Source: a virus
DNA: 47,377 bases
Reading direction: 5' to 3' (one strand)
Virus genome (UHGV): UHGV-0210496
Shown here: positions 2,983-18,960 of the stretch, piece after piece
Numbering within the stretch: the first letter of the stretch is position 1
Layout: each line of letters opens with the position of its first letter
The notes under the pieces: model-generated
The model's input: the letters and a program-made list of their open reading frames with translations, nothing else
Databases searched by the model: none
What the model was told of the DNA's origin: nothing
Program-made: the position numbers and the translations under genes

Positions 2983-3190
2983 TTTTATAAAACTCATTCT
3001 CTTTATTGCCGTTGGTAGTGAATCCTTTTTGAATTAGGATTTTCTTTCCCTCGGCTTTTGTTGTTTCATCAGAAGCAACGATTTTTCCTATGACACGTAT
3101 TTTCCAATCACCAAACTCATATATGGGAGGCAGTGGAACAAAAAGTTCCAAATAGCCACCGATAAAATTAATTTTTTTTGATTTATCCAT
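2960..3190 (-). CDS. Hypothetical 76-aa phage protein
   Basis: Track ORF within the early operon. No recognisable motif. Confidence 0.4.
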   Translation of the reverse strand: MDKSKKINFIGGYLELFVPLPPIYEFGDWKIRVIGKIVASDETTKAEGKKILIQKGFTTNGNKENEFYKIIDLDFV

Positions 3191-3201
3191 AATCAGTTCT
3201 C

Positions 3202-3966: not shown

Positions 3967-3970
3967 CTAT

Positions 3971-4399: not shown

Positions 4400-4411
4400 A
4401 GGTGATTCCTC

Positions 4412-5029: not shown

Positions 5030-5041
5030 TGATAGTTCCTC

Positions 5042-6130: not shown

Positions 6131-7449
6131 TTCGGTTGTTGTGGTGATTGCTGAGGTGTAGGTCCGCCCTCAGATGGTGCTAATCTGTTTTCAGTCACAT
6201 AGCCATCTTCAATTATGATTTCGCACTCATCACCTGTTGAAACGCGGGTTGCAATTGCCTGTAGACCTTCTTGTTCCAGCCACTGGCCAAACTCGTTCAA
6301 CGTGACCATGTCCATCTGTTCCAATTTATCCAACAGGATGAAACCGCAATCCGGTTTTAATTTCCTGACGATTGCCGTCGATACTTTTAACTGATCAGAG
6401 CCAGACATGTTGTCCCATTTTTGACCGTTATAGACTAACTCGCCGTCTGTCACAGATAATCCTGGTAATGGTAGTTGCGCATTAGCGAGTAACGCTGCTT
6501 TTTCTTCTCGAATCGAAGTAATGTCGTTTGTCAGAGTATCGTATTGATTCTTGTATTCGTTGGCATCTTCTTCGGCTTTGTCTTTATCTAGATTTGCCCG
6601 GACACGTCGATTGATCTCGTCGACTTCAGCAATATTTTGTTGGAGTTCTTGTGTCGATTCATCTTGCAGGTTTTCAGCAGTCTTTTGCGCTGTTGCCAAG
6701 TCTGCAGATAATCGATTGCATTCAATTTGTTCTTTTTGCAGTTGTGCTTGAAGTTCTTCAATCCTCGTGTTGATTGCTTGGATATTTGATTTCGATTGTT
6801 CCAACTGAAAAGAGATTTGATTGACTTGATTTCGCTTTTGTTGATTCTCACCATTTCTGGCTAAGATCTCTTGTTGTTTGGCAACTAGATCAGCAACTGC
6901 GATCGGCTCTTTAGGTGCTTCTGGGAAATATGGCTGTTCTGCTGCAAACTTTTTCTTCTGATCGGCAATTTGACCAATCGTGTGCCGCTGGTTATATATT
7001 TCTTGCTCCTTGCGTTCCAGTTCAAATAGTTGATCGCCCACACCAATAATCTGCAGGAGGATATTTGCTTTTTCCTTACTTGACGAATCCATAAATTTCG
7101 GTAGATCGATGGCCAACTCTTCGACAAAGCTGTTCAATAAATTCTGTCCAGCTTTTTCTCCATTGGGATCAATGACCTTCAAATCAGAATTCTTACCTTT
7201 GCGTTCAACGACAAGACCGTTGTTCATGACGATATGGAGGTGTGGTGGTGTGACTGATCCTTCTCGATACGCTTGGCTTGGTTTGTATTTATTGCCACCA
7301 AGTCCCCATGCAATGGCATCAATGACACTAGTTTTCCCTTGGTTATTGTTTCCGCCCACGATGGTTAATCCGCTGGCATTCGGTTCAATCTTTACCGCTT
7401 TGACACGTTTAACGTTTTCGATTTCTAATTTGTTGATTTTCACACTCAC
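6109..7449 (-). CDS. SMC/SbcC-like ABC ATPase (AAA_23) with long coiled coil
   Basis: N-terminal Walker A GGNNNQGKTSVIDAI, a central heptad-rich Q/E/K coiled coil, and a C-terminal D-loop/Walker B ILLDKLEQMD. Confidence 0.75.
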   Translation of the reverse strand: MSVKINKLEIENVKRVKAVKIEPNASGLTIVGGNNNQGKTSVIDAIAWGLGGNKYKPSQAYREGSVTPPHLHIVMNNGLVVERKGKNSDLKVIDPNGEKAGQNLLNSFVEELAIDLPKFMDSSSKEKANILLQIIGVGDQLFELERKEQEIYNQRHTIGQIADQKKKFAAEQPYFPEAPKEPIAVADLVAKQQEILARNGENQQKRNQVNQISFQLEQSKSNIQAINTRIEELQAQLQKEQIECNRLSADLATAQKTAENLQDESTQELQQNIAEVDEINRRVRANLDKDKAEEDANEYKNQYDTLTNDITSIREEKAALLANAQLPLPGLSVTDGELVYNGQKWDNMSGSDQLKVSTAIVRKLKPDCGFILLDKLEQMDMVTLNEFGQWLEQEGLQAIATRVSTGDECEIIIEDGYVTENRLAPSEGGPTPQQSPQQPKWKEGEF

Positions 7450-7778
7450 TCGTAATCACCTCGCATAAAACTTTTTAAAATTTCCGGAATATCGTTTAAA
7501 TCATCAGTCACAAATGTATGGCCGATGTTCGTTCCTTCATCGGTCTCCATTTCTTTTAGTGATAAGAGCGCTGCTTTTCGTAAAATTTCGGCTTTTATTG
7601 GACTTTCGTTATCCAAATTTCGCTCCTGCAATGCTAATAACAAACCGATTTCTGGTAGACTGCCAGCGACCATCACTTTTGCTTCTCCTTCTTTTTGCAT
7701 GGTACAAAGTAAAGCAACACCTTCTTTGTGACATTCTTGTTGTAATTCGTCTGCTAAAGCTTGAATTTTTTCGTTCAT
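7446..7778 (-). CDS. Hypothetical acidic phage protein (110 aa)
   Basis: Track ORF. Its stop overlaps the SMC-like gene start (7446-7449). Confidence 0.5.
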   Translation of the reverse strand: MNEKIQALADELQQECHKEGVALLCTMQKEGEAKVMVAGSLPEIGLLLALQERNLDNESPIKAEILRKAALLSLKEMETDEGTNIGHTFVTDDLNDIPEILKSFMRGDYE

Positions 7779-7805
7779 GTGTTAAACTCCTTTTGTATAA
7801 TATAT

Positions 7806-8630
7806 TTATTGTTGGTCTACACTAGCGGGAACTGGTGTAGGCTCTTTTTGTATTTCCGCAATTTTGGTTCCATCTGCTGAGAAGTACGTATGTGTTTCTA
7901 CGCCTGCAAAGATTACAACTGTATGGATCACACGTTCTTCTTTTGATTCAATACTGAGCGATCCGGCAGTCACACTTCTTGATTGCATGGGTTGTTCTGT
8001 TTGCATAGAGTCTTCCTCCTTCTTCGCATATTGGGCAAATCGGGCATTGTTGAATTTTTGCATTGATTGTTTTGATTTCAAGCTGGTAGTTCCGGGTTTT
8101 ACATTGGCAGGGATCCTGCCCTCTTTTCTCAGACGACCAACTTTCTGAACCACTTGCGAATATTGCTTACCAGTCACTTTTGCTAATTCTTCGTAGTTCG
8201 ATACATAACCATTGGAGTCAAATTCGATTGTGTCTAATAAAATGCGTACATCATTGTCTGGCCAACAGCTTAACTTTTGAGATTTAACTCTTCCTGAAGC
8301 TCTAAGTTTTGCGGATTTATTTGAACAAGATCCTTTTGATCGCCCTAGTGCTTCTCCGATTTCCTCATACGAGGCTCCTTGCTTGTACATGGCAATCAAT
8401 CGTTTTTCTTCTGCAAGCGTCCATGGCCTACCATCACTATCAAAAGCAAGTTCCTTTTGAATTTTCGGGAATTTCCCATCTTTTCTCATGTCAGAGATCT
8501 TTTTCGTAACTGCTGAAACTGACCTTCCTAATTTCATTGCTATCTGTTCCGCATTGACAACTTCGTTTGTTTCGGCCATTAGTGCGTTTTTAAGAACGTA
8601 CGCAATTTCTTTTGTCGTCCAAGCGTTCAA
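7806..8630 (-). CDS. DNA-binding protein with three tandem HTH-like repeats
   Basis: Three segments of about 45 aa repeat the pattern ...EIA/EIG/ELAKxxGRSxxxVxxKxxxLRKxGR.. (residues about 8-55, 70-115, 120-170). Confidence 0.55.
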   Translation of the reverse strand: MNAWTTKEIAYVLKNALMAETNEVVNAEQIAMKLGRSVSAVTKKISDMRKDGKFPKIQKELAFDSDGRPWTLAEEKRLIAMYKQGASYEEIGEALGRSKGSCSNKSAKLRASGRVKSQKLSCWPDNDVRILLDTIEFDSNGYVSNYEELAKVTGKQYSQVVQKVGRLRKEGRIPANVKPGTTSLKSKQSMQKFNNARFAQYAKKEEDSMQTEQPMQSRSVTAGSLSIESKEERVIHTVVIFAGVETHTYFSADGTKIAEIQKEPTPVPASVDQQ

Positions 8631-8841
8631 TTTTCCCCCTCCTTAATCTTTTTCGATAAGCAATCTCGTCATACTTGATCAACCACCACATAATCGACAC
8701 CGGCAATGCAATGAGTGCCCAATCAGGTAATTGGCGACTGCTAAACCAAACGCCTAGGAAAAATGTTGTGATCAAGAATGCTGATCTTCGTAAACTTTTC
8801 AAAAAAATCACCTCAATTCTATTTGCCGATTCAATCGGCAT
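8590..8841 (-). CDS. Small putative 2-TM membrane protein
   Basis: Track ORF with hydrophobic segments. It overlaps its neighbours and no RBS was checked. Confidence 0.3.
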   Translation of the reverse strand: MPIESANRIEVIFLKSLRRSAFLITTFFLGVWFSSRQLPDWALIALPVSIMWWLIKYDEIAYRKRLRRGKIERLDDKRNCVRS

Positions 8842-9008
8842 TGATAAAGTAATTCTTGGTACCTTTTGAGATCTCTAACTAGCAAATCTCGTTGAGAATA
8901 GCTCAGTAAGCTTTTTCGATCGTGCAACTGGTCATGGAGGCTGTGTACTCTCTCTTTGGCTAAGGTGTCGATCAGCAACTCTTGTTCAAGTGTGTAGGTC
9001 ATGTTCAC
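8808..9008 (-). CDS. Hypothetical small protein (66 aa)
   Basis: Start overlaps the upstream gene stop (ATGA-type coupling). Confidence 0.4.
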   Translation of the reverse strand: MNMTYTLEQELLIDTLAKERVHSLHDQLHDRKSLLSYSQRDLLVRDLKRYQELLYQCRLNRQIELR

Positions 9009-9289
9009 ACCTCAAAATTCTCAGCTAAGAAATGCTGCAGCGATTCTCTCTCAATCCGAATATCTTGCGGACTCCAAACCTGTATTTTTAATCCCATAGA
9101 AATCCACTTGTTGAGTTTTTTGTCTCCGATACCTAAAACCTGCTTGATAGTTTCTTTGTTTCCATACGGTGGTAGCTCAAGTGTTTTCGTTAGCAATTTC
9201 ATACGTTTTTCAATTTCTGCAGTTGCAATGGTCACAATAGAAAGAGCTATCTGTTTCTGCATCAATTCATCTGGTATATGCAATTCCAT
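9005..9289 (-). CDS. DUF771-like small phage protein (possible excisionase/HTH)
   Basis: Translationally coupled to cro (TAATG overlap at 9289). The C-terminal ...TIKQVLGIGDKKLNKWISMGLK... is HTH-like. Confidence 0.45.
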   Translation of the reverse strand: MELHIPDELMQKQIALSIVTIATAEIEKRMKLLTKTLELPPYGNKETIKQVLGIGDKKLNKWISMGLKIQVWSPQDIRIERESLQHFLAENFEV

Positions 9290-9480
9290 TAATTCGAATC
9301 CTCCTTTAATGCAGCTAAAGCATTTTCGATAGGCTCAATTTGCTTGTCTGGTTTACGTTTACTGTTCATAATATCGGACATGTATGCTCTGGAAATGCCG
9401 ATAGTATCCGCCAACCAATTCTGTGTTTTGTCATACTTAGCCAACTGAATTCTGACTTTTAAGATAAAATCTTGTGACAT
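9289..9480 (-). CDS. cro: Cro-like XRE-family HTH regulator
   Basis: 63 aa. The HTH is QNWLADTIGISRAYMSDIMNSKRKP. RBS AAAGGAAAGGAG precedes the ATG. It sits divergent from the cI-like gene. Confidence 0.75.
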   Translation of the reverse strand: MSQDFILKVRIQLAKYDKTQNWLADTIGISRAYMSDIMNSKRKPDKQIEPIENALAALKEDSN

Positions 9481-9794: not shown

Positions 9795-10145
9795 ATGACA
9801 GCATTTGATAGGTTAAAATTGCTTTGTGCGAAACAAGGGATTTCTGTAAATGATTTAGAGGAAAAGATCGGAATTGGTAAAAACTCATTGTATTCTTGGA
9901 AAAAGAACATACCCAAGGGCACAAATTTATTAAAAGTTGCTGATTATTTCAATGTATCCACCGATTACTTATTAGGAAGAACTGATAACCCAACAGCAAG
10001 TCTATCTGGTAAACCTCAATTTACAGTAGAAGAAGCACTTGAATCTGTCATGAGTAGTGATGGTAAGCCTTTAACTGAACATGACCGTAAAGTTTTAACT
10101 GGTATTATTGAAGCGTATCTTGAGAATAATTCTGATGCTGAGTAG
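9795..10145 (+). CDS. cI-like XRE-family repressor
   Basis: N-terminal HTH (LKLLCAKQGISVNDLEEKIGIGKNSLYSWKK). GGAGG lies 9 nt upstream. An ImmA gene follows immediately. Confidence 0.8.
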   Translation: MTAFDRLKLLCAKQGISVNDLEEKIGIGKNSLYSWKKNIPKGTNLLKVADYFNVSTDYLLGRTDNPTASLSGKPQFTVEEALESVMSSDGKPLTEHDRKVLTGIIEAYLENNSDAE

Positions 10146-10586
10146 GTGGTTTGTTTGGATTTGGATAATGAAGTAAATCAGATTATAGACGAGCTTGGCG
10201 TCACTATTATGGAAACGCCAAGACTCGATTCTGATGCAAAGTATATTGCTATTATGAACACAATTGTGTTGGATGCTCGCCTGTCTGATCGTGTCAAGCT
10301 GTTAAGACTTCTTCACGAATTAGGACATGCAGCTAAACATAAAAATAATTATGTACTTTATAAACGGACTTTTGCTCTTCATTCTAAAATGGAAAACGAA
10401 GCAGAAGAATTTATGATTGAAAAAATGCTTGAAGTAACATTAGGCAATCCGGAATTTGATCCTGGTTCTTTTAATTATGTAAATTTTTTAGAGAGCTACG
10501 AAATCGAATTGAGATATGAACCATTTGTCAAACAATTCATGACAAAGTACCTCGTCAGACCTAATTCTGACCATATATTTTTTTAA
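10146..10586 (+). CDS. ImmA/IrrE-family zinc metallopeptidase
   Basis: HEXXH motif LLHELGHAAKH. GTG start abuts the cI stop. A ~441-bp gene. Confidence 0.8.
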   Translation: MVCLDLDNEVNQIIDELGVTIMETPRLDSDAKYIAIMNTIVLDARLSDRVKLLRLLHELGHAAKHKNNYVLYKRTFALHSKMENEAEEFMIEKMLEVTLGNPEFDPGSFNYVNFLESYEIELRYEPFVKQFMTKYLVRPNSDHIFF

Positions 10587-10623
10587 CACAAAAGCGAACA
10601 TACATTCGTTTTTTTCGAGAGGA

Positions 10624-10842
10624 GTGACTATTTTGACTGATAAAGAAAAAGAGATTACTGTTGCTGAGTTAATAAATATTTTGAAAGATGCAAACCCAAA
10701 TTCAAAAGTTCTATTCTATGGAACCATCATAAGCAAAAATAGCTTTGTAAGTGTAAAAGCCCCAGTCATTAGCGCGTATATATCAGATGAAAAATATAAC
10801 AATGTGCAAGGAGTGGTAAAGCTCTCAGGAGTACAAGAATAA
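10624..10842 (+). CDS. Hypothetical small protein (about 70 aa)
   Basis: Sits between ImmA and int. Likely start is the in-frame TTG at 10633 after GAGAGGAG. Confidence 0.4.
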   Translation: MTILTDKEKEITVAELINILKDANPNSKVLFYGTIISKNSFVSVKAPVISAYISDEKYNNVQGVVKLSGVQE

Positions 10843-10873
10843 TTATATTATGAATTAGATTGGAGATAAGTAT

Positions 10874-11269
10874 ATGGAAAATATAGAAGTAACAATCCCT
10901 CAAACTTGGAAAGGATTACCGATCAAACTGTCTAAAATTGTAACCACCAAAGATAATCAATTTCTGAACAACGGTGATATCGCAGCTTTTATTCAAATTT
11001 TCGGCGATCCTTCTGACTATATAAAGTCTGGAGATTTATTATGTTTAGAAGCTAATACAAGCGGCTACGATGGACACATTTTTAAGTATGAACCAGTTGT
11101 TGAAATTACAGGCATTAAGCATGTTTTTTCACCTATTTCTCAGTTTATGGAAAGAAAAGAAATCATAGTTGATGATTTATCAAAGGTATCAATTAAGGGA
11201 AAAATTTTGTGTTCATTCAGGGGACTGTCCGAGGGTATTTCATTTTTAACTATGGCACAGGAGGAATAA
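10874..11269 (+). CDS. Hypothetical protein (131 aa) in the lysogeny module
   Basis: ORF immediately upstream of int. Its stop sits 1 nt before the int ATG. Confidence 0.5.
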   Translation: MENIEVTIPQTWKGLPIKLSKIVTTKDNQFLNNGDIAAFIQIFGDPSDYIKSGDLLCLEANTSGYDGHIFKYEPVVEITGIKHVFSPISQFMERKEIIVDDLSKVSIKGKILCSFRGLSEGISFLTMAQEE

Positions 11270-11270
11270 T

Positions 11271-12410
11271 ATGATTAAAGAATATGAAAAAAAAGACGGT
11301 AAAAAATATTGGATGTTTAAAGCTTACTTAGGTGTTGATCCAGCAAGCGGAAAGAAGATTTATACAACAAGGCGTGGTTTTAAAACACAAAAAGAAGCTA
11401 GGATTGCAAAGTCTAGACTTGAATTGCAGGCACAAGATAACAAATATACACCAGAAAAAAATTATACTTTTATAGAGATCCAAAATATGTGGTTTGAAGA
11501 ATATAAAACTACTGTCAGAGAGAGTACCCTATCAAGAGTATCTTTTCTTTTCACTAAAAATATATTTCCTTATTTTGGAAAAAGAAAGATATCCTCATTT
11601 ACTGTCGCATATTGTCAAAAAATCGTTAATAAGTGGAAAGATGAATATTCAACCTATAAAGCATTAAAAACATACACTACTGCGGTTTTTGATTATGCAG
11701 TTCGAATTAATGTTATAAATTCAAATCCCATGAAAGATGTGTACATTTCAAAAGGAAAATATCGAAAAAAAGACGAACGTATTAAGTTTTATGAATCAGA
11801 TGAACTCAAGCAATTTTTGGAAGCTGCTAAACAAGATAAGTTCCCTCTATCCTACCCCTTATTTAGACTTCTGGCTTTTACTGGAATGAGAAAAGGTGAA
11901 GCTTTAGCACTGACTTGGGAGGATATTGATTTTAACAATAAGATGCTAACAATCAACAAAACCATAGCTAGAAACACAAAAAATGAAATCGTGATTAATC
12001 ATCCCAAAACAGAAGCATCGATTAGAGAAATTTCTTTGGATGATACTACAATTGATATCTTAAAAAAATGGCGACAAGATCAAAGAAAGTATTTATTATC
12101 ATTTGGTCACAACTCTCTTAGACCTAATCAGATCATCTTTGCGTCAAAGAACAACAATTATCTGGATCCTCTTAGACCAAATAATATTCAAAAAAGGTTA
12201 TGTAAAGAAAATCAATTAAAGGACATCACCATTCATGGCTTTCGACACACACACTGTAGTTTACTATTTGAAGCTGGATTATCCATACAAGACGTGAAAA
12301 CTAGACTCGGACATTCAGATATACAGACAACCATGAATATATATGCTCATGTAACAAAGAAGCAAAAAGATATCTCAGCAGAAAAGTTTGCTAGATACCT
12401 TAATTTCTAA
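11271..12410 (+). CDS. int: Tyrosine site-specific integrase
   Basis: C-terminal catalytic region ...HGFRHTHCSLLFEAGLSIQDVKTRLGHSDIQTTMNIYAHV... with the R..HxxR..Y pattern. N-terminal SAM-like arm-binding domain. Confidence 0.9.
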   Translation: MIKEYEKKDGKKYWMFKAYLGVDPASGKKIYTTRRGFKTQKEARIAKSRLELQAQDNKYTPEKNYTFIEIQNMWFEEYKTTVRESTLSRVSFLFTKNIFPYFGKRKISSFTVAYCQKIVNKWKDEYSTYKALKTYTTAVFDYAVRINVINSNPMKDVYISKGKYRKKDERIKFYESDELKQFLEAAKQDKFPLSYPLFRLLAFTGMRKGEALALTWEDIDFNNKMLTINKTIARNTKNEIVINHPKTEASIREISLDDTTIDILKKWRQDQRKYLLSFGHNSLRPNQIIFASKNNNYLDPLRPNNIQKRLCKENQLKDITIHGFRHTHCSLLFEAGLSIQDVKTRLGHSDIQTTMNIYAHVTKKQKDISAEKFARYLNF

Positions 12411-12634
12411 AAGTATGGTCAAAAGTATGGTCAATAAAATAAAAAAAGCGCTGAACCCTTTGATAACAAAGGATACAGCACTCGTAAAATTATTTAACTG
12501 TTACCATTATAGACCTCTCTGACCTTCTTCCGTAAAACTTCTCTTCCTATATAATAGCGATCTATATGAATACAATCATCTCAATAAGCGTCAATAATCT
12601 TCTTGTTGTATGGTCAAAGTATGGTCATTTTAAA
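12411..12634. repeat. attP-like region: four direct copies of GTATGGTCA (two tandem pairs) flanking about 170 bp
   Basis: AAGTATGGTCAA x2 at 12411-12434, and GTATGGTCAAAGTATGGTCA at 12609-12627. All four are in the same orientation. They sit immediately 3' of int. Confidence 0.45.
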
Positions 12635-12700: not shown

Positions 12701-13264
12701 ATGAAAAAAATAGTTTTGTTGGGATTAGGGATAGTTTTTCTTTCTGGTTGTACATCTAATAATAATGAGACGAGCAATTCTTCTTCACAAGAAAAAGATA
12801 GTGTTAGCACTCCTCACTCAGTTGCTACTACTGTTTCTGAATCATCTTCGGAATCTGAGGCTGCAGGAGTTACTTTTGAAAACACTACTCTTACAACTCC
12901 TGAAGGTATATTTACTTTGACTGGATCTAAAAGTAATGAGAGTGAAGATGGAGACAAGTCTATTTTTGTTACTTTTGATTACAAGAATACGACTGAAGAG
13001 AATCAAAATTTGGAGTTTCTTATTTGGGATTACTTCGATGCTAAACAAATTTTTCCTGATACAACAGAATCTCTTAATTATTTAATGTACATGGATGACT
13101 TTGCATATTATGATTTATACGAGAAAACTCAAGTTGAAATTAATCCTGGCGCAACCGTTCAAGCCGGTTATGGATTTCTACTAAAAGATGCTGACTATCC
13201 TTTAATCATTGATTTTATGGAAGATCCTTCAACCCCTATAGGAAGAATAGAATACGATTATTAA
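12701..13264 (+). CDS. Secreted lipoprotein (DUF4352-like) - candidate superinfection-exclusion/surface protein
   Basis: Signal peptide MKKIVLLGLGIVFLSGC with lipobox LSGC. A Ser/Thr-rich linker precedes a beta-rich domain. Confidence 0.7.
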   Translation: MKKIVLLGLGIVFLSGCTSNNNETSNSSSQEKDSVSTPHSVATTVSESSSESEAAGVTFENTTLTTPEGIFTLTGSKSNESEDGDKSIFVTFDYKNTTEENQNLEFLIWDYFDAKQIFPDTTESLNYLMYMDDFAYYDLYEKTQVEINPGATVQAGYGFLLKDADYPLIIDFMEDPSTPIGRIEYDY

Positions 13265-13270
13265 AATTTC

Positions 13271-13305
13271 AAAGCTCCTACCTTATTTGGTAGAGAGCTT
13301 TTTTT
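13271..13305 (+). terminator. Rho-independent terminator after the lipoprotein gene
   Basis: AAAGCTCCTACC-TTATTT-GGTAGAGAGCTTTTTTT, a stem of about 9 bp with one bulge and a T7 tail. Confidence 0.55.
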
Positions 13306-13318
13306 ATTTTCTGTTCGC

Positions 13319-13347
13319 TTTACAAAACGAACGTTCGTTCGTATAAT
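13319..13347 (+). promoter_or_regulatory. Sigma70-type promoter TTTACA-17-TATAAT whose spacer is a perfect 14-bp palindrome AACGAACGTTCGTT
   Basis: -35 at 13319-13324, palindrome at 13326-13339, -10 at 13342-13347. AAGGAGTG precedes the ATG at 13367. Confidence 0.5.
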
Positions 13348-13366
13348 TCTTGCAAGGAGTGATTGA

Positions 13367-13658
13367 TATGCAAATACCGTTAGCACATCAAAGAACCTAT
13401 GCTTTTGAACGTTACTACTACGAGTTTATCGAAAGAATGGGGCCAGCTCATCTATTATACGATCAATTCGCTAAAACAATGGATAATTTCGGGAAACCCT
13501 ACTTTACGGTACCCTGCAGCTACAGCGGATATCCGGAAGAGCTAGCGTTTGTATTCAAGGTAGAGGGCGAAGATTATTTATTTGATCATGTCAGAACACA
13601 AGATAAAATACTTAGGAAGTACGATCCTAATGAAAAATATAGACCCGGCGGTAACTAA
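13367..13658 (+). CDS. Hypothetical protein (about 97 aa)
   Basis: ATG at 13367 with AAGGAGTG 6 nt upstream. The track ORF 13350..13658 starts slightly earlier. Confidence 0.5.
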
Positions 13659-13659
13659 C

Positions 13660-13926
13660 ATGAATTTAATAGCCATGTATGAACAAGGCTACCTATCTCT
13701 TTATGAGTTTATAAACGCATTTCCCGACTCGATTTCCGAATCACAAGAATACTTATTCGGCTCAAAATGTGTCGAGTTTTATGTTGCTGCCGCATTAGGT
13801 AACACGGACTGTCGCTATTATGTACAAGCTTATGGAGGCGATCAATATGAAAAGGATGAAAGGTGTAGTTTCGAAGATACGTGTGTTGAAGATGAGCAAG
13901 ACCCCTTTGGTGCGGTTTTCGCTTAA
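13660..13926 (+). CDS. Hypothetical protein (about 88 aa)
   Basis: ATG at 13660 directly after the upstream stop (TAACATG). The longer track ORF 13582..13926 overlaps the upstream gene by 77 nt. Confidence 0.35.
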   Translation: MNLIAMYEQGYLSLYEFINAFPDSISESQEYLFGSKCVEFYVAAALGNTDCRYYVQAYGGDQYEKDERCSFEDTCVEDEQDPFGAVFA

Positions 13927-14131
13927 CGAAGTTAACTGCTTGACTGCTGCACACAGTTTGAACTTCTTAGCTGATGTAGACGAAGGAATGCAGATCGTGG
14001 TTGCCGGTGAGTATAATGAACGGAAGCAGTTTGTTGTTAAGAAGTATTCGGTGATTGGAAAAACGAAAATTATGATTGAATTCGAAGCAATGAAAAAGCC
14101 TTCTACTCAAATGAGTAAAGGGCTTTTTTGA
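13847..14131 (+). CDS. Hypothetical protein (about 94 aa)
   Basis: ATG at 13847 with GGAGG 8 nt upstream. It overlaps the previous ORF by about 80 nt in another frame, so one of the two may be spurious. Confidence 0.4.
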   Translation: MKRMKGVVSKIRVLKMSKTPLVRFSLNEVNCLTAAHSLNFLADVDEGMQIVVAGEYNERKQFVVKKYSVIGKTKIMIEFEAMKKPSTQMSKGLF

Positions 14132-14201
14132 CCTTTTAGGATCGAATCTATGATTAGACGGTTATTAGCTTTCTGCTCTGAGCAATTAATCTAAAGATAC
14201 A

Positions 14202-14233
14202 ACCCTACCCACTCTCTGAGTGGGTAGGGTTGA
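14202..14233. terminator. Perfect 13-14 bp inverted repeat between convergent genes (bidirectional terminator candidate)
   Basis: ACAACCCTACCCACTC-TCTG-AGTGGGTAGGGTTG followed by AAAAAAG on the plus strand. The minus-strand reading gives stem + UAUCUUU. Confidence 0.5.
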
Positions 14234-14288: not shown

Positions 14289-15749
14289 TTAACTATCTGG
14301 TGTAAAAAAAGTTAGTACAAAAAAATCAAAGAAACCTATTTTTTGTAAAAAAAGTATAACAAAAAAAGCATAACAGCAACCAGAAATTATATTAACATAT
14401 TTTAATTTTTTTATCTCAGGATTTGATATTTTTTTCTCTAAATCACTTATTATATTATCTTCTGTTAAATAAAGTTTGGGATAATAAGTATTCATAATTT
14501 CGACTCTGTTCACATACGTTTGATAGCTTTTAAATTCTCCACTAACAAAATACATAACTAAAAGATATACAGAAAACATTAAAGCTACAAAATATGAAAA
14601 ATTTGAAAAAGATTCATCATTTCGGGAAATAGCCTCGAAAATAAACTTACTCAAAAATATACCAATTACTGAGACTATATTGTTCATTAGGCTTTTCTTT
14701 GTTTCAGATATTTGATTGCTGATTTCCTTTGACATACTAAATTGTTCTTTGATTATCTCTTTCTTTTCTGCAATAAACTTGGTTACTTTTTCATCTACAT
14801 ATAGATCATATTCGCTAATACTTATTTTTAGTAATTTCTCCCAAAAACGTTCATCATAATTGCAATTATTAAATTCCTCTTCCTCAATGCAATCATATAT
14901 TTTGTTTCTTACAATTCTTAGCTTCTCTCTATAACTTGAAGATTCACTAAAAATAAACATATTAATACGTGATATGAACTCATAGCAACTTCCAAGATTA
15001 CCTGTGAGGCTGTTTATGTTTAATTCCTTCACAGCTTGTTTTATTATTAGGAATGAAGTCTGATTTCTGTTATCAAAAATATTTGTCAATGCATTTATCA
15101 TGCACTTTCTCAAAATTTCAGACGTAATTGAACCACTCATACTAACTATAGAAGGTATATAAGATATACTTTTATGATACGCTCTTTGTGTTTGTATAAA
15201 ATTAATATATTCATTATCGATCTTATTATTTTCACTACTAAAACTAAAAATTGAGGAATTAATATTTTGCTTTATAGGACCAACAATTCTAATTTTGTTC
15301 TCTAAGTATTGTAAGTCTGAAATATCTATATAATCAGTTAATTGAATGATTAGCTCAACAAAATTATTCTCCAAACAATACTCAATAACCGGTTTACCTT
15401 CTAAGGGTAAATCAAGATTTTGTATTTTTCTTATTTTTAATCTAACTTCTTCATCATACTCATAGTCTTTTTTTATCTCTGTAATTCTTTCATTTAAATG
15501 TTTATAATCAACAATTTTGGAAGCATCATCTGTTTCAATCAAAAATAGCTGTATACAATCCGATTCATCTAAAAAAGGCTTTGACAAACTGGAAAAAATT
15601 TCTAAATCATCAACTTTAATTGATGCATCCAAAATTTCATCTATTTGAATACGATTGAATGATGACTTAGCAACATTTATTCTTGGTTGAGTATAAGTGA
15701 TGTTTATTTTTTCTAATAAAGAATTAAAAATATTCGCCTCATCATACAT
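14289..15749 (-). CDS. Gene B of an AT-rich two-gene operon: 486-aa protein with a ~340-aa cytoplasmic domain and C-terminal 3-4 TM helices (candidate membrane effector)
   Basis: GGAGA RBS 8 nt before the ATG at 15749, 24 nt after the gene A stop. Hydrophobic helices NNIVSVIGIFLSKFIF, FSYFVALMFSVYLLVMYFVSG and YVNIISGCCYAFFVILFLQKIGFFDFFVLTFF. By eye GC is about 27%, against about 40% for the phage genes. Confidence 0.7.
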   Translation of the reverse strand: MYDEANIFNSLLEKINITYTQPRINVAKSSFNRIQIDEILDASIKVDDLEIFSSLSKPFLDESDCIQLFLIETDDASKIVDYKHLNERITEIKKDYEYDEEVRLKIRKIQNLDLPLEGKPVIEYCLENNFVELIIQLTDYIDISDLQYLENKIRIVGPIKQNINSSIFSFSSENNKIDNEYINFIQTQRAYHKSISYIPSIVSMSGSITSEILRKCMINALTNIFDNRNQTSFLIIKQAVKELNINSLTGNLGSCYEFISRINMFIFSESSSYREKLRIVRNKIYDCIEEEEFNNCNYDERFWEKLLKISISEYDLYVDEKVTKFIAEKKEIIKEQFSMSKEISNQISETKKSLMNNIVSVIGIFLSKFIFEAISRNDESFSNFSYFVALMFSVYLLVMYFVSGEFKSYQTYVNRVEIMNTYYPKLYLTEDNIISDLEKKISNPEIKKLKYVNIISGCCYAFFVILFLQKIGFFDFFVLTFFTPDS

Positions 15750-15773
15750 TCAATTCATCTCCAAGTAATGATT

Positions 15774-16811
15774 TTATCCATGGTTAACCATAGCTTTAGG
15801 AATATCTAATCTAACATAACGATTATCGGTAAGTTCATCAATCTTCACTGTATTGTCATCAACTAACCCTTGCTCAATACTAACCCAAATACTTCTATTT
15901 TCACTGCTTAATCGATATTTCTCACCATTTGTAGGCTGAGATGTAAACGTAGCAGCAGCACTAGGGTTACTTTGTAATATCAAGTTAAAAGTTTCTTTTG
16001 CTAGCGTATCTTCATCCATAGAAGCTTTTTCTAACAAATCATTATTCAATAAAGGATAAATTTCAGTAACAATAGCATTAATAGAAGTTCTTTTTCTCTG
16101 AGACATTATGATATTTAATTGTTTATCAACCGCTTCTAATTCTACTTGATTTTCAACAAAGTCCTTTGCCTTTCTTCTGATAAACCTGTGAGCTAACCGT
16201 GACATAACTTGATCGTCTGCCACTAAAACGCTATTCATAAGGTTGATGAAATAGGTGGATATAGTTTTGTCTTGTTTATCTAAAATCCTTAAATGGAAAT
16301 TATTACCTACAGAATTATCTTCAAAACTATCAATCTTTGATTTATATATAAAAGCACATTTTTGTAAACTATTGCCTAAATCCGGTAACATATTGGGCTG
16401 AATTTTAAACACATTGCCATTCATTTGTATACCTTCATTCAGTTCCATTTTCATTATCGCAAGAAGTTCATCATTCCCAATAAATTCGTCATCAGTAAAT
16501 TTATAAGTAAATACTATAAGAAGAAATGATTTTTTTACAGAGTAATGCATATTCATTTTTAAATGGTCTGCAATTTTCAAAGCAGCTTGTTCGAAATCAT
16601 CTTCTATAAAGCACTTACTACAAGGAATAAAAATATCGCTATTATCTGATCTAAATCTTGCCGCTTTCGAATTCACATCTTTCGTTGATTTTATAATGTG
16701 TTTCTTAAAAAAAACATCAATTTTCGATTCAAATCCCCGCATCACTTCACTCTCACGTGAAATAACTTCCAATTCAGGATCTATTTCAAAAACCTTCAAA
16801 TAATTAATCAT
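15774..16811 (-). CDS. Gene A of the AT-rich operon: 345-aa cytoplasmic protein; tentative NdpA/YejK (NA37) nucleoid-associated-protein-like fold
   Basis: GGAGG RBS 8 nt before the ATG at 16811. The segment KKSFLLIVFTYKF..DEFIGNDELLAIMKME..KIQPNMLPDL recalls the YejK core (GG.VLFCHYRY..EYLLVAVL..INPTHYLDI). NNFHLRILDKQDKTISTYFINLMNS recalls [24 protein letters not shown]. The similarity is from memory, not a search. Confidence 0.65.
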   Translation of the reverse strand: MINYLKVFEIDPELEVISRESEVMRGFESKIDVFFKKHIIKSTKDVNSKAARFRSDNSDIFIPCSKCFIEDDFEQAALKIADHLKMNMHYSVKKSFLLIVFTYKFTDDEFIGNDELLAIMKMELNEGIQMNGNVFKIQPNMLPDLGNSLQKCAFIYKSKIDSFEDNSVGNNFHLRILDKQDKTISTYFINLMNSVLVADDQVMSRLAHRFIRRKAKDFVENQVELEAVDKQLNIIMSQRKRTSINAIVTEIYPLLNNDLLEKASMDEDTLAKETFNLILQSNPSAAATFTSQPTNGEKYRLSSENRSIWVSIEQGLVDDNTVKIDELTDNRYVRLDIPKAMVNHG

Positions 16812-16949
16812 TTAAACAATACCTCCGATTTATCTGCTAACTAAATTAAACCAAAAGGAAGCCCGAAAAACAAGCGTTTTCCAAGACTTCCTATAGCAGA
16901 TATAATCGTATGAGGATTATATGGAAATTATACCAAACATAAGTTCTTA

Positions 16950-16985
16950 TTTCAACGACAAACAACCACTCCCGGAAAGGAGTGG
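16950..16985 (-). terminator. Terminator downstream of the tRNA
   Basis: Hairpin CCACTCC-CGGAAA-GGAGTGG at 16966-16985. On the minus strand it is followed by UUGUUUGUCGUUG. Confidence 0.4.
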
Positions 16986-17037
16986 CACAATTAGATGAAA
17001 AGATTTTTGTAAGGTAACTTATGATCCTAAAAAACAA

Positions 17038-17111
17038 AGTACCTTGTAGGACTTGAACCTACGACCGGACGGTTATGAGCCGTCTGCTCTAACCATCTGA
17101 GCTAAAGGTAC
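17038..17111 (-). tRNA. tRNA with CAU anticodon (Met by anticodon; acceptor and anticodon-stem features suggest lysidine tRNA-Ile2)
   Basis: Manual cloverleaf. Acceptor GTACCTT/AAGGTAC, D-arm GCTC-AGATGGTTA-GAGC, anticodon arm GACGG-CTCATAA-CCGTC (CAT), variable loop CGGTC, T-arm GTAGG-TTCAAGT-CCTAC. G1:C72, so not an initiator. C4:G69, C5:G68 and C29:G41 resemble TilS determinants. Confidence 0.8.
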
Positions 17112-17610
17112 AAAACAACCCACCCTTGGAGAGAGTGGGCTTAAAACAGGGTAAAAAATGTCAGGATATTAGCCCCGGTTAAGGCTATTATCATTCTACA
17201 AGGTATCTTATTTAAATTCAACAAAAATCCACCCTACTATAGTGTAGAGTGGAATTTTCGAAAGAGCAATTACAATAAAATGGATTAGTTGGTATAAATC
17301 CATGATACACTTTAGCATTTTTTATTCAAGAGATTTCTAGCAAAAATATTATCTGATTTTAGAGAGACAAGCTTTTCATTTTGTCATGAATTTACAATTA
17401 TAATATGCTGAAAAACATAGAAATATTTTAGACGATATTCTGAACAATAATATCTATTAAATAAAAATAATGATAAAATAAACAAGAAGAGTGTTAGGCA
17501 CACTTCCCCAAGTTTCCACCGCCTAACTACTCTTCATAAAGTATTGCACGCATCTACTAATTTATAGCATAAACTAAATTACTGCAAGTAAAATGAATAA
17601 GATCTATGTA

Positions 17611-17638
17611 CAAGCCCGCAGAAGCGGGCTATTTTTTA
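17611..17638. terminator. GC-rich hairpin with T6 tail at the endolysin stop (canonical in plus orientation, A-tract plus hairpin in minus orientation)
   Basis: AGCCCGC-AGAA-GCGGGCT at 17613-17630, then ATTTTTT. It overlaps the endolysin stop codon (17636-17638). Confidence 0.5.
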
Positions 17639-18424
17639 TGCTTCTGTTGCTACTTTGCGGAGATACGCAACTTGAACTGGATCTGTGTGAATCCAAGTGT
17701 CATAGCCTGCTTTTTCCATCATCGCTTGGATTTTCTTCAAATCGCCTTCTGATTTCACATGAGTAAATTTGTTTCCTGTCAAAAAGTAAACTTTCGGATC
17801 ATTTTGATTTCTAAATAGTAACATGGTTTCTCCTACTTTCTTTGGTTGAATTTGTGGTGTGTTTGCTTGTGTGTTGTTGCTTGTATTGCTGAAAACTGCG
17901 TTCTTGAATCGTTCGAATTCGCTTGGTTTCGCCACCCAAGGAGCTGGACAGTTTTTGCCTGTCACGTCAAAGTGGCGCCAAATCTTCTCTCTCGTAATAT
18001 GAGGATAAATGGCGATCAATTCTTTGACAGCCTTCACAGCATTTTGGAATGTCTTTTCCGTAATGTTTCCATTCTTGTCTAGGCACATTTCAACACCGAT
18101 CGTTGAATAGTTGGCGTTGCCTATCTTAGAATACAGCGGACGATAGCGTGAACCATCTGCATTGTATTTGCTGATTTCGTTAGCGTGATATGCAACTTCA
18201 TTCAAGGGAATGATACAGAGTGCTTCAATATCATCTATAAACAGTTGAGCAGAAGCATAGGTTCCTTTTAGATTATTAAAATAGTTCTTGTGATTGCGTG
18301 CGGTGCCACCATTGTTGGCGGTGTAGTGCATAACGATACCATCAATACCGTTATTCCTGATACCTGGTCTTGAGTACTCATTAATATTGATATACTCGTA
18401 TTTGATAAAACTCATATCAATCAT
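17636..18424 (-). CDS. Endolysin: N-acetylmuramoyl-L-alanine amidase (Amidase_2/PGRP) plus a C-terminal wall-binding domain
   Basis: ...GIDGIVMHYTANNGGTARNHKNYF... and ...AYHANE... are typical of Amidase_2. A C-terminal domain of about 70 aa follows. It is the last gene of the late operon. Confidence 0.85.
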   Translation of the reverse strand: MIDMSFIKYEYININEYSRPGIRNNGIDGIVMHYTANNGGTARNHKNYFNNLKGTYASAQLFIDDIEALCIIPLNEVAYHANEISKYNADGSRYRPLYSKIGNANYSTIGVEMCLDKNGNITEKTFQNAVKAVKELIAIYPHITREKIWRHFDVTGKNCPAPWVAKPSEFERFKNAVFSNTSNNTQANTPQIQPKKVGETMLLFRNQNDPKVYFLTGNKFTHVKSEGDLKKIQAMMEKAGYDTWIHTDPVQVAYLRKVATEA

Positions 18425-18453
18425 CCTCTCTAAAAAAAGAAGCAGCCAATCGG

Positions 18454-18960
18454 CTACTCCTTCTTTTTTGTAAATTCTTGGCCATCGCCATAGTCTGGAA
18501 CATTTTTACTATCCAGAGCTTGGGTTTCAGATTGGCCATCACCATAATCTATTTTGATTTCTGTTACTTTAGGTTTTGGATTTTCAGTACTATCTTGTAG
18601 CTTAGACAGTCTTTCTTTGACCCAATTTGGAATCGGCACACCTAATTGACCTAAATTTTCAGTGATTGAAATCCCGTAAACTGCGATATAGAAAAAGACG
18701 AATGCAGTCGCAAACGTCTCGAGATTCATAATCTTTAGGTAGGGATAAGCAACAATCACTAAGCAAACGACTAGCATATGCTTAACGATTCCAAGTAAAC
18801 CTTTTGTACTGTTGGCATCTTTAATGAACACCCCTTTGAATAATCCTGTCACAATATCCCCGACCACTACCCATAAAAACAACTGCACATATCCATTTGT
18901 CAGCAATCCTCGAAATTCATTTAGTAACACTCCATTATCAATAATCACCATATTTACCAC
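18454..18960 (-). CDS. Holin (phage_holin_4_1/TcdE-like)
   Basis: Helices LFLWVVVGDIVTGLF and LLGIVKHMLVVCLVIVAYPYL. A hydrophilic C-tail carries a duplicated DYGDGQ motif. It lies immediately upstream of the endolysin. Confidence 0.75.
   Translation of the reverse strand: MVNMVIIDNGVLLNEFRGLLTNGYVQLFLWVVVGDIVTGLFKGVFIKDANSTKGLLGIVKHMLVVCLVIVAYPYLKIMNLETFATAFVFFYIAVYGISITENLGQLGVPIPNWVKERLSKLQDSTENPKPKVTEIKIDYGDGQSETQALDSKNVPDYGDGQEFTKKKE

Follow-up and report, generated by a model that had tools for sequence, protein, structure and literature searches.

A putative tRNA-Ile2 gene in the moron hotspot of a temperate Enterococcus siphovirus

Introduction

The virus genome UHGV-0210496, analysed here over its whole length of 47,377 nt (the window), carries a tRNA gene with the anticodon CAT beside an AT-rich pair of genes, and its placement raises the question of which amino acid such a tRNA would carry and what a phage would gain from it. 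The original prediction took it for a likely lysidine-type tRNA-Ile2 reading AUA, rather than a tRNA-Met, and proposed that it would serve exactly the ATA-rich genes of the adjacent operon and the Abi-like morons. In this study, we address the isotype of the tRNA, its relation to phage integration, the signals that bracket it, the codon usage of its putative clients and its history among related phages.

Results

Identification and structure of the tRNA gene

The sole tRNA gene called by ARAGORN in the window lies at 17038-17111 on the minus strand. It is 74 nt long (GUACCUUUAGCUCAGAUGGUUAGAGCAGACGGCUCAUAACCGUCCGGUCGUAGGUUCAAGUCCUACAAGGUACU), has the anticodon CAT and the discriminator U73, encodes no CCA, and matches Rfam RF00005 over its full length (67.9 bits, E 8.8e-13). 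A CAU-anticodon tRNA had been predicted within 16950-17111, and the gene was found there with every base pair that the prediction had named. In the remainder of this interval (16950-17037), the 3' trailer is accompanied by a hairpin resembling a terminator (16965-16986) and by the -35 edge of the putative cargo promoter, and a relaxed Rfam scan of 16800-17700 gave no credible match other than the tRNA. Two features, the discriminator U73 and the missing CCA, had been passed over in silence by the earlier description.

By direct reading, the acceptor stem consists of G1:C72, U2:A71, A3:U70, C4:G69, C5:G68, U6:A67 and U7:A66, and the inner pairs include U12:A23, C11:G24 and C29:G41, with C29-G30-G31 facing C39-C40-G41. 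The anticodon (C34 A35 U36; 17075-17077, minus strand; tRNA position 35 in the ARAGORN output) lies within the loop CUCAUAA (C32-U33-C34-A35-U36-A37-A38), where C34 is the expected target of the lysidine synthetase TilS. None of the 14 aligned family members, among them E. coli tRNA-Ile(CAT) and ileZ of phage 933W, departs from this loop, which is also that of a chromosomal Exiguobacterium gene. Across these 14 members, 99% of the cells were paired and 10 pairs were altered on both sides, a degree of covariation matched by none of 500 shuffles. Besides U73, all other invariant and identity positions are intact, U6:A67 being a compensated pair.

Isotype of the tRNA

An ordinary elongator tRNA-Met reading AUG has some annotation in its favour, given that ARAGORN names the gene tRNA-Met (from the anticodon alone), that the homologues of phIS3501 and vB_ElaS_B1578 were deposited as tRNA-Met, and that in E. 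coli CAU tRNA-Ile2 can be charged with methionine while it is unmodified (PMC9976931); however, the comparisons with genes of both isotypes make this identity very improbable. The global identity of the phage tRNA was 78-84% to E. coli tRNA-Ile(CAT), but 59.5% to the elongator Met genes metT/metU and 51% to the initiator metV. A chromosomal Exiguobacterium tRNA, 92% identical to the phage tRNA, is located just after a tRNA that is 65% identical to it and was classed as elongator-Met-like by structure (C3:G70, no A11:U24), a BLAST of this neighbour against E. coli giving weak tRNA-Arg matches only; identity to Ile(CAT) genes thus spans 78-92%. In a scan of genome contigs with a 44-mer from the tRNA, matches came from Exiguobacterium only.

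Individual positions point in the same direction. It has been reported that A3/U70 completely discriminates Ile(CAT) from Met and fMet, which carry C3:G70, that G3/A3 or C70/U70 mark Ile(CAT), and that C4:G69/C5:G68 are frequent in Ile(CAT) (PMC1635315); the phage pair 3:70 is A3:U70, that is, not C:G. C32/A38 agree with Ile(CAT) genes, while the Bacillales Met-like tRNA has U32/C38. None of the initiator features sought by direct reading under the criteria of PMC1635315 (a C1xA72 mismatch, A11:U24, G29-31/C39-41) was found, and the argument that G1:C72 excludes an initiator holds. Existing labels agree as well: PGAP gave tRNA-Ile on 12 of 12 rows sampled evenly down a ranking of 6040 matching E. 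coli records, the examples fetched among these records having the anticodon CAT, and the tRNA of Enterococcus phage 4995_1, 92% identical, is labelled tRNA-Ile by tRNAscan-SE in PGAP. Four of the six differences from the latter (U6, A67, A57 and U20a) agree with E. coli tRNA-Ile(CAT).

In E. coli, recognition by TilS is dominated by C4:G69 and C5:G68; TilS determinants are species-dependent, the BcTilS enzyme using 3:70 and 4:69 (PMC11947777; PMC12514573), and tilS has been reported from nearly all bacteria (PMC11947777). Both E. coli pairs are found in the phage tRNA, although the rule of that enzyme may not be the Enterococcus rule. The three pairs originally proposed as TilS determinants therefore have to be divided, since C4:G69 and C5:G68 are supported as such, but C29:G41 is documented as a determinant of isoleucyl-tRNA synthetase (IleRS) and not of TilS (PMC9976931). 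Judged by its sequence, the gene is of the tRNA-Ile2 type, a putative TilS substrate and not a tRNA-Met, as had been predicted. This bears on annotation, as ARAGORN and several deposited phage records say tRNA-Met for a family of at least 113 IMG/VR contigs that should be called tRNA-Ile2.

Integration site and host

A tyrosine integrase (Pfam PF00589 and arm-binding domains) is encoded at 11271-12410 on the plus strand, followed by attP (12412-12627, plus strand), in which arm-type repeats AGTATGGTCA at 12412, 12424, 12607 (one mismatch) and 12618 flank a core ending at 12504. The stretch TTATTTAACTGTTAC at 12490-12504 corresponds to the last codons of host rplL, supplied by the phage. In three lysogen contigs (L035, L037 and L038), identity with the window extends as far as 12504, beyond which host rplL-rplJ-rplA-rplK follow, with host proteins named after the Enterococcus casseliflavus/gallinarum group. 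This temperate siphovirus has the Enterococcus casseliflavus group as its host and inserts at the 3' end of rplL.

A connection between the phage tRNA and integration could take three forms: a host tRNA bordering the prophage, an attP copy of a target tRNA, or a compensating copy in tRNA-dependent lysogeny. The homologue does lie near a record end in several prophage-derived records, int and the tRNA point towards each other in the manner of classical tRNA-att arrangements, and tRNA-dependent lysogeny, in which a host tRNA gene of matching isotype overlaps attB and is not rebuilt upon integration, exists in actinobacteriophages (Guerrero-Bustamante and Hatfull 2024; PMC10865867). Against this, the attL junction with rplL at 12504 refutes such a role for the window phage, the att core lies away from the tRNA and between its own arm repeats, and the window contains no further copy of the tRNA 3' end even with 3 mismatches allowed. 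Since attB is the rplL 3' end and the last rplL codons come from the phage, tRNA-dependent lysogeny was rejected, and homologous tRNAs are also internal in virion-derived or induced phage genomes. A tie between the tRNA and integration is thus hardly credible. With integration taking place at the rplL 3' end, the tRNA, 4.5 kb inside the phage from the attachment site, is internal cargo; the int-proximal repeats noted in the original prediction do exist, 4.6 kb from the tRNA, and its view that the tRNA is not the obvious attB half-site agrees with this.

Two further arrangements were considered and rejected. The window is not an integrated prophage, its gene order being the attP (circular) form with ends that do not overlap, while other contigs show both attP and attL forms; and the cargo is not an integrase-type island inserted in the phage tRNA, as it has neither an integrase nor a direct repeat.

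Signals around the tRNA gene

The features described here are on the minus strand. The last late gene upstream of it encodes an endolysin (17636-18424; Amidase_2, Pfam PF01510, 6e-17), and a terminator-like hairpin with a T-run at 17228-17253 (10-pair stem, tail TTTTTGTT) likely ends the late/lysis transcript. A predicted sigma-70-type promoter, TTGAAT-17-TAGAAT (17193-17221; 9/12 in a consensus scan), is a candidate for driving the tRNA from about 82 nt upstream; the E. faecium phage homologue has TTGACA-18-TAAAAT about 125 nt upstream of its own tRNA. Between the predicted promoter and the tRNA, a leader hairpin (17117-17141), whose U-rich tail GTTTTG abuts the tRNA 5' end, may be a weak terminator/attenuator or a leader structure, and its terminator-like form counts against expression of the tRNA from this promoter. 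The terminator-like hairpin at 16965-16986, 52 nt after the tRNA, would close the cassette with the stem GCCACTC/GAGTGG, a sequence that recurs as the stem of the terminator behind the homologous tRNA of three Enterococcus phages. A strong promoter-like site (16927-16955; TTGAAA-17-TG-TATAAT, 11/12) then precedes the AT-rich cargo operon. Bracketed in this way by promoter-like and terminator-like sites, the tRNA looks like a self-contained promoter-tRNA-terminator cassette.

ATA codon usage

The cargo (14289-16811, minus strand) encodes proteins of 345 aa (GC 30.5%) and 486 aa (GC 25.6%) that had no match in Pfam, PHROG, PADLOC, NCBIfam or PDB sequences. The 345-aa protein is named 'nucleoid-associated protein' in NCBI sources, and its single-sequence AlphaFold2 model was unusable (pLDDT 33). 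ATA makes up 41 of 831 cargo codons (49.3/1000) versus 13.7/1000 in other phage genes (odds ratio 3.7, p 5e-11), which bears out the claim that the cargo is rich in this codon, and the same can be said of the Abi-like morons. An AbiC-like moron inside the structural module (34416-35486, minus strand; PADLOC AbiC 5e-87; GC 32%) has 39/1000 and is likely a further client of an AUA decoder; a TIR-like effector moron (41236-42114, minus strand; PADLOC TIR effector 1.5e-10; GC 32%) has 41/1000, and a candidate defence gene of family PDC-S47 (45854-46738, plus strand; PADLOC 1.1e-41; GC 32%) has 37/1000. ATA thus ranges over 30-64/1000 in the low-GC accessory genes (the two cargo genes, AbiC-like, TIR-like and PDC-S47), and reaches 28/1000 in the tail fibre gene (GC 39%).

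Phage-wide, ATA stands at 15.8/1000 versus 3.9/1000 in 14 host-flank genes (odds ratio 4.0, p 1.7e-7), a host baseline of 2533 codons only, many of them from ribosomal protein genes; as a share of Ile codons it is 22% in the phage versus 5.6% in the host-flank genes. Across all genes ATA falls as GC rises (Spearman -0.73), and the ATA/Ile ratio of the cargo (0.32-0.47) is about what base composition predicts (A3 share 0.37-0.41). The ATA excess of the cargo tracks its low GC and is common to the other defence-like morons, and the codon and base-composition comparison gave no evidence of co-adaptation between the tRNA and the adjacent cargo.

The tRNA in a variable moron hotspot

Homologues of the tRNA are carried by 113 phage contigs of IMG/VR, where they occupy a variable hotspot of morons and defence genes that follows the lysin gene; a lysin is upstream of the tRNA in 70 of these contigs. 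The flanks shift right at the tRNA borders, where the adjoining 40-mers take 44 distinct forms upstream and 47 downstream, and 242 protein clusters occur within 4 kb of the related tRNAs. These distributions suggest that the tRNA is an older conserved resident of the hotspot, which was probably not acquired for the cargo now adjacent to it. The proposal that it serves exactly these genes was therefore too specific: members of the family occupy this site in many phages whose cargo is unrelated, the present cargo has a putative promoter to itself and is separated from the tRNA by a terminator-like hairpin, and its ATA richness follows low GC.

Its setting among defence and counter-defence-type morons also brings to mind a counter-defence spare, which would stand in for a host tRNA lost to cleavage or depletion in the infected cell, as through the action of an anticodon nuclease; a passage of PMC10688831 cites the proposal that phage tRNAs sustain translation while the host machinery is degraded. 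However, the phage has just one tRNA, which belongs to a minor isotype and shares its anticodon loop with the chromosomal versions, showing no escape changes, and the ATA excess in phage genes offers a simpler explanation, so that this role appears highly unlikely.

The discriminator base U73

A73 is found in 111 of the 113 related viral tRNAs and in all chromosomal and E. coli examples, while U73 is confined among the viral relatives to the window lineage. A metagenome scan gave one relative, L155, which is the closest in the acceptor stem: it has the same stem, but A73 and a different 3' flank, which would place the breakpoint exactly after C72. In the window lineage, by this comparison, the sequence from position 73 on appears to have been replaced, leaving U73 instead of A73.

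A37 and A38 are said, after Nureki et al. 1994, to be IleRS elements. Other IleRS determinants are A73 (strong), C4:G69, U12:A23 and C29:G41 (PMC9976931). Within this combined set, C4:G69, U12:A23, C29:G41, A37 and A38 are present in the phage tRNA and A73 is replaced by U73. Because A73 is a strong IleRS identity element, the charging efficiency of the tRNA is uncertain; U73 may lower isoleucylation, and it would reduce certainty on efficient charging but not on the ancestry of the gene.

The same observations allow a less favourable view, in which the gene is of the Ile2 type but functionally crippled by U73, A73 having been lost with the acquisition of what now lies downstream (trailer and AT-rich cargo), and would persist mainly as a 74-bp recombination anchor in the moron hotspot with little decoding. 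The restriction of U73 to a single lineage, the A73 and different 3' flank of L155, the strength of A73 as a determinant and the change of flanks at the tRNA borders are all compatible with such a course. On the other hand, the remaining invariant and identity positions are intact, with U6:A67 compensated, the downstream terminator retains the family stem, and the identical tRNA sequence recurs in at least 5 independent samples; we regard a crippled tRNA as unlikely, while giving it some weight.

Discussion

Taken together, we consider it probable that 17038-17111 is a phage-encoded copy of the minor tRNA-Ile2, an older resident of the hotspot that would be expressed as an autonomous cassette, lysidinylated and charged with isoleucine, and would add AUA decoding. 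Transcription would run from the predicted promoter (17221-17193) to the terminator (16986-16965), and maturation would involve RNase P, 3' processing and CCA addition, the last being needed because no CCA is encoded. Host TilS would then read C4:G69/C5:G68 and convert C34 to lysidine, as E. coli and Geobacillus work suggests, and IleRS would charge the LAU form with isoleucine for the reading of AUA. The benefit to the phage is likely extra AUA-decoding capacity. If the tRNA is functional, a lysogen could translate ATA-rich accessory genes that are otherwise limited by scarce host tRNA-Ile2, including the AbiC-like, TIR-like and PDC-S47 defence candidates and the AT-rich operon, and this would be one route by which AT-rich foreign genes become expressible after transfer.

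A broader reading, which we put forward tentatively as a possibility below even chance by some way, joins this role to the history of the locus. The 74-bp tRNA-Ile2 cassette would be a conserved anchor of the moron and defence hotspot in temperate phages of Enterococcus and related Lactobacillales, kept for the AUA capacity that lysogens need to express defence cargo that is very AT-rich and came by horizontal transfer into a host of about 40-42% GC, and a cargo exchange would have cut exactly after C72, leaving a natural U73 variant of the tRNA that synthetases might recognize differently, with both IleRS and MetRS charging it less well, for instance. The U73 variant also offers a natural test of the weight of the discriminator for TilS, IleRS and MetRS in Enterococcus.

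A phage-borne tRNA that decodes AUA is an already known kind of phage feature, its logic being established for ileZ-stx of 933W and proposed for Latilactobacillus curvatus prophages, and the finding of a phage tRNA-Ile2 leaves current understanding unchanged. The tRNA-Ile of phage T4, a virulent phage with an eight-tRNA cluster, is a phage-encoded reader of AUA, a codon that the host seldom uses and the phage uses often. Phage 933W, compared here from its sequence record, carries ileZ-argN-argO upstream of stx2AB and resembles the window phage in being temperate and in having a tRNA-Ile with anticodon CAT that is bracketed by rho-independent terminators (terminator-like hairpins in the window phage) and immediately upstream of ATA-rich accessory cargo: stxA2 has 15 ATA in 319 codons (47/1000), and the cargo here 41 in 831. 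The two tRNAs share the acceptor residues C4 C5 U6 U7 and the CUCAUAA loop, but ileZ has A73 and an encoded CCA, where the window tRNA has U73 and no CCA. The 933W genes are three rare-codon tRNAs in a Q-antiterminated late transcript of a Gram-negative lambdoid phage, whereas the window phage is a Gram-positive siphovirus with a single tRNA after the lysin gene.

Among chromosomal genes, the Exiguobacterium tRNA-Ile2 is nearly identical to the phage tRNA in the anticodon arm, variable loop and T arm. Chromosomal tRNA-Ile2 in general (E. coli ileX/ileY; Bacillales) shares C4:G69, C5:G68, U12:A23 and C29:G41 with it, the phage tRNA differing by U2:A71 for G2:C71 and U6:A67 for C6:G67, both compensated, and by U73 for A73.

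The L. curvatus prophages agree with the window phage in host order (Lactobacillales), temperate siphovirus type and proposed role: they carry tRNA-Ile2(CAU), and ATA makes up 15.7% of their Ile codons versus 4.3% in their hosts (PMC10688831). The tRNA of L. curvatus phage TMW 1.1365 P3 is 92% identical to the window tRNA over the full 74 nt (94.5% over the megablast match), but it lies upstream of int in the lysogeny module, while the window tRNA follows the lysin gene at a distance of 4.5 kb from attP, and the L. curvatus tRNA-Ile2 genes have A73, unlike the window tRNA. The tRNA(CAU) family of Enterococcus prophages (for example 4995_1, vB_ElaS_B1578 and EH-TP1, and the 113 IMG/VR contigs) shares the core sequence, the terminator stem and the position after the lysis cassette and before cargo and int. 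From this family the window lineage differs by U6:A67, A16, A57 and U73, by its other immediate flanks, and by its host, which belongs to the E. casseliflavus group, whereas the family has E. faecium, E. hirae and other recorded hosts.

Identity of the tRNA gene

The sole tRNA gene of the 47.4-kb window was called by ARAGORN at 17038-17111 on the minus strand with anticodon CAT, and its 74 nt (GUACCUUUAGCUCAGAUGGUUAGAGCAGACGGCUCAUAACCGUCCGGUCGUAGGUUCAAGUCCUACAAGGUACU) are matched end to end by the Rfam tRNA model (67.9 bits, E 8.8e-13). The acceptor stem consists of G1:C72, U2:A71, A3:U70, C4:G69, C5:G68, U6:A67 and U7:A66, the D stem contains U12:A23 and the anticodon stem C29:G41, and the anticodon loop reads CUCAUAA. 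Position 73, the discriminator, is U, and the gene does not encode the 3' CCA; the original prediction mentions neither of these two features. Our reading of the sequence recovered every base-pair feature cited in the original prediction. An initiator, dismissed there on the paired G1:C72, is excluded, as the gene has no 1x72 mismatch, no A11:U24 and no three G:C pairs at 29-31/39-41.

Several independent lines favour tRNA-Ile2 over the tRNA-Met suggested by the anticodon. Against 5,426 complete E. coli genomes, 12 matching records sampled at even steps through the ranking were all tRNA-Ile by PGAP annotation, the fetched examples having anticodon CAT, and global identity of the window tRNA was 78-84% to E. 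coli tRNA-Ile(CAT), 59.5% to elongator metT/metU and 51% to initiator metV. Seventeen Exiguobacterium-type genomes contain an exact 44-mer from these arms (anticodon and T); in them the matching tRNA (92% identical to ours) follows, at a distance of a few bases, another tRNA that has the features of an elongator Met (65% identical). The only other match at the site in a relaxed Rfam scan was to the 'Plastid-ycf2' 5'UTR model on the strand opposite the tRNA (17037-17111, plus), with 30 bits, below the gathering score. This model presumably overlaps the plastid trnI-CAU gene, which probably explains the match; if so, the match is an incidental, weak extra hint for Ile(CAU).

The homologue in Enterococcus phage 4995_1, 92% identical, is annotated as tRNA-Ile by tRNAscan-SE in PGAP, and tRNAscan-SE 2.0 has dedicated models for Ile2, Met and fMet, with misclassification in about 1.2% of bacterial genomes (PMC8450103). 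According to Silva et al. (PMC1635315), A3 or U70 distinguishes tRNA-Ile(CAT) from elongator and initiator tRNA-Met alike, and tRNA-Ile(CAT) often has C4:G69 and C5:G68. The same two pairs dominate substrate identity for E. coli TilS (PMC11947777; PMC12514573), in agreement with their proposed role as lysidine synthetase determinants, but C29:G41, credited with the same role, is documented as a determinant for IleRS and not for TilS (PMC9976931). The matches, identities, homologues and published discriminators all agree, and we regard the Ile2 type of this gene as almost certain.

Some members of this tRNA family have been deposited as tRNA-Met with 'codon recognized: AUG' (phIS3501, JQ062992.1 / NC_019502.1; PQ283533.1), and the ARAGORN output reads likewise. 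Judged by their Ile2-type acceptor stem and the same anticodon arm, the labels in phIS3501 and PQ283533.1 are probably mis-annotations.

Structural conservation and the discriminator base

A degenerate 39-mer from the tRNA core matched 113 IMG/VR viral contigs, whose tRNAs fall into 26 sequence variants. When 14 distinct members were aligned, among them the E. coli gene, 933W ileZ, one copy each from a Bacillus and a Latilactobacillus phage, and the chromosomal Exiguobacterium gene, the cloverleaf was 99% paired with 10 pairs changed on both sides, none of the shuffles or slid registers came close to this pairing, and U12:A23 and C29:G41 were invariant; the family is under selection for tRNA structure.

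Position 73 is A in 111 of the 113 viral copies and G in one, and U73 occurs only in the window lineage (contig L027, 98% identical to the window over 13 kb). The metagenome relative L155 has exactly the acceptor stem of the window, but A73 and then a different 3' flank, and its anticodon stem carries two compensated changes with C29:G41 kept, so the sequence replacement in the window lineage starts exactly after C72. The identical U73 sequence was found in at least five independent assemblies, which rules out a sequencing error. The discriminator is listed as a strong determinant of isoleucine identity, and the Ile, Met and Val systems have A73 in common (PMC9976931); U73 is therefore the main reason to doubt full tRNA function.

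Three independent short-read assemblies (Logan contigs L006, L007 and L008) break exactly at window position 17084, inside the tRNA, as would be expected if the samples held a second tRNA-Ile2 copy, in the host or a second prophage, sharing positions ~27-57 and having G, not A, at T-loop position 57. A contig deposited as 'Listeria phage LM 4-11-1' (OR846730.1) has two Ile2-type copies 2 kb apart (1330-1403 and 3341-3414), possibly a duplicated cassette; each copy has a single substitution, G53 to A or G46 to A, expected to weaken a conserved position.

ATA codon usage

The adjacent AT-rich operon (14289-16811) was proposed to be rich in ATA, and the codon count bears this out: its two genes have 49.3 ATA per 1000 codons (41/831; 0.42 of Ile codons) versus 13.7 per 1000 (0.20) in all other phage genes (odds ratio 3.7, p 5e-11). 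The phage as a whole has 15.8 per 1000 (0.22 of Ile codons) versus 3.9 per 1000 (0.056) in fourteen host-flank genes (odds ratio 4.0, p 1.7e-7), a small sample in which many genes encode ribosomal proteins.

The further suggestion that the tRNA supplies a decoder for exactly these genes is too narrow, since the enrichment is not specific to the operon adjoining the tRNA and tracks GC content. Across the phage, ATA frequency drops as gene GC rises (Spearman -0.73, p 9e-9). In the cargo, ATA makes up the same share of Ile codons as A does of third positions, and genes below 35% GC, a quarter of the codons, hold 54% of all phage ATA codons. Four scattered low-GC morons each have 37-41 ATA per 1000 codons: an AbiC homologue inside the head-tail module (34416-35486, minus strand; PADLOC 5e-87), a TIR-like protein adjoining the packaging genes (41236-42114, minus; PADLOC 1.5e-10), the PDC-S47 candidate defence protein beside the primase (45854-46738, plus; PADLOC about 1e-41), these three below 35% GC, and an unassigned 252-aa gene (2224-2982, plus). 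A further 37 ATA codons come from the tail fibre gene (39% GC). In two related Enterococcus phages, lysogeny and moron genes near the tRNA have 23-44 ATA per 1000 versus 0-3 in lysis genes. Judged from sequence, it seems fairly likely that the tRNA acts as an AUA decoder to the benefit of ATA-rich phage and moron genes, a confidence lowered by U73.

The tRNA lies inside the prophage

The window genes are those of a temperate siphovirus in circular (attP) order, with no terminal overlap: early genes (568-9480, minus), repressor, ImmA-type protease and integrase (9795-12410, plus), three small genes (12701-14131, plus), the two-gene operon and the tRNA (both minus), endolysin and holin (17636-18960, minus), tail, head and packaging genes up to ~43.3 kb (minus) and a primase (43574-45796, minus). 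Exact protein matches traced this phage to several assemblies, and in three contigs (L035, L037 and L038) the sequence beyond the integrase passes, at window position 12504, into host rplL-rplJ-rplA-rplK-...-nusG-secE, whose proteins the sources assign to the Enterococcus casseliflavus/gallinarum/innesii group. Read on the opposite strand, the junction TTATTTAACTGTTAC gives the final codons of rplL and its stop codon, so the phage integrates into the 3' end of rplL (L7/L12) and rebuilds the gene. Four copies of AGTATGGTCA at 12412, 12424, 12607 and 12618 flank the att core (attP region 12412-12627), placed as arm-type integrase sites would be; neither attR nor an empty attB was seen.

This junction places the tRNA 4.5 kb inside the prophage, which rules it out as a bordering host gene, and no second copy of its 3' end exists in the window even at 3 mismatches. 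The expectation that it is not an att half-site is thereby upheld, and tRNA-dependent lysogeny (as defined in PMC10865867) is likewise ruled out by integration into rplL. That the tRNA is phage cargo unrelated to att is, in our view, virtually certain.

In 'Acinetobacter' phage D2SVT (PQ554527.1), the tRNA and repressor-cro identities are the same as in Enterococcus phage vB_ElaS_B1578 (PQ283533.1), and the host label of D2SVT looks doubtful.

Predicted transcription signals and a variable neighbourhood

All on the minus strand, a terminator-like hairpin (17253-17228) is followed by a predicted promoter TTGAAT-17-TAGAAT (17221-17193), a ~75-nt leader with a second hairpin (17141-17117), which may attenuate expression and has a U-rich tail abutting the 5' end of the tRNA, the tRNA, a 52-nt trailer, a third hairpin with a T-run (16986-16965) and a strong predicted extended -10 promoter for the cargo (16955-16927); the non-tRNA part of the interval originally noted (16950-17037) is thus trailer, hairpin and the edge of this promoter. 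The common Enterococcus phage version has a TTGACA-18-TAAAAT site ~125 nt upstream of the tRNA and a terminator with the same GCCACTC/GAGTGG stem ~77 nt downstream. With such predicted flanking signals, the tRNA seems to form a small transcription unit of its own, distinct from that of the cargo. The three hairpins and that at 14200-14232 have a common CCACTC...GAGTGG/GGGTGG stem, also the terminator 3' of the homologous tRNA in Enterococcus phages (L001, 5924-5907; L002, 5926-5909), reflecting either common descent or a preferred terminator design.

The operon (345 aa and 486 aa; 26-30% GC) has its own strong predicted promoter and a bidirectional terminator (14200-14232) and was found only in E. 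casseliflavus/gallinarum prophages. Searches of Pfam, PHROGs, PADLOC, NCBIfam and PDB sequences gave no match for its proteins, and the name 'nucleoid-associated protein' given to the 345-aa protein by NCBI sources was not reproduced here; the operon may be a new accessory or defence system.

The ~490 nt that separate the lysin stop codon from the tRNA cassette (17146-17635) have no ORF of at least 50 aa and no credible Rfam match, and hold a plus-strand promoter-like site (17381-17409) and terminator (17613-17630); they may give rise to a small non-coding or antisense RNA, or be what is left of a gene.

Around the 113 viral tRNAs, the 40-nt flanks take 44 upstream and 47 downstream forms, ORFs within 4 kb fall into 242 clusters, and 70 contigs have a lysin cluster upstream of the tRNA. 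When the 148 largest clusters were scanned with Pfam and PADLOC, they yielded functions of the phage core and of mobile elements (holins, integrases, IS transposases) and the defence families AbiD (three clusters), PDC-S22, PD-Lambda-1, PDC-M24, PDC-S57, PD-T4-9, RmrA, CapH/CapP and SocA/Panacea. Low-GC flank ORFs average 31.5 ATA per 1000 versus 8.4 at 36% GC or more. The tRNA is thus a long-standing occupant of a moron hotspot that lies between the lysis genes and the att/int end, and the AT-rich operon found beside it here is one neighbour among many that can replace each other.

Comparison with known systems

The closest analogue is 933W, whose record annotates ileZ (tRNA-Ile; anticodon CAT confirmed here) with argN and argO, with terminators before and after the three, directly upstream of stx2AB; 15 of the 319 codons of stxA2 are ATA. 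The tRNA-Ile of T4, which reads AUA, is a further phage precedent. In Latilactobacillus curvatus prophages, 7 of 10 tRNA-Ile genes have the CAU anticodon and are Ile2 by tRNAscan-SE 2.0, ATA use is higher in phages than in hosts, tilS is present in hosts, and the same codon-offset hypothesis has already been proposed (PMC10688831); one phage of that study has a tRNA 92% identical to ours. The window tRNA was correctly identified and, given these precedents, is a kind of feature already known, with only the U73 variant and the tRNA-anchored defence hotspot going slightly beyond the published picture.
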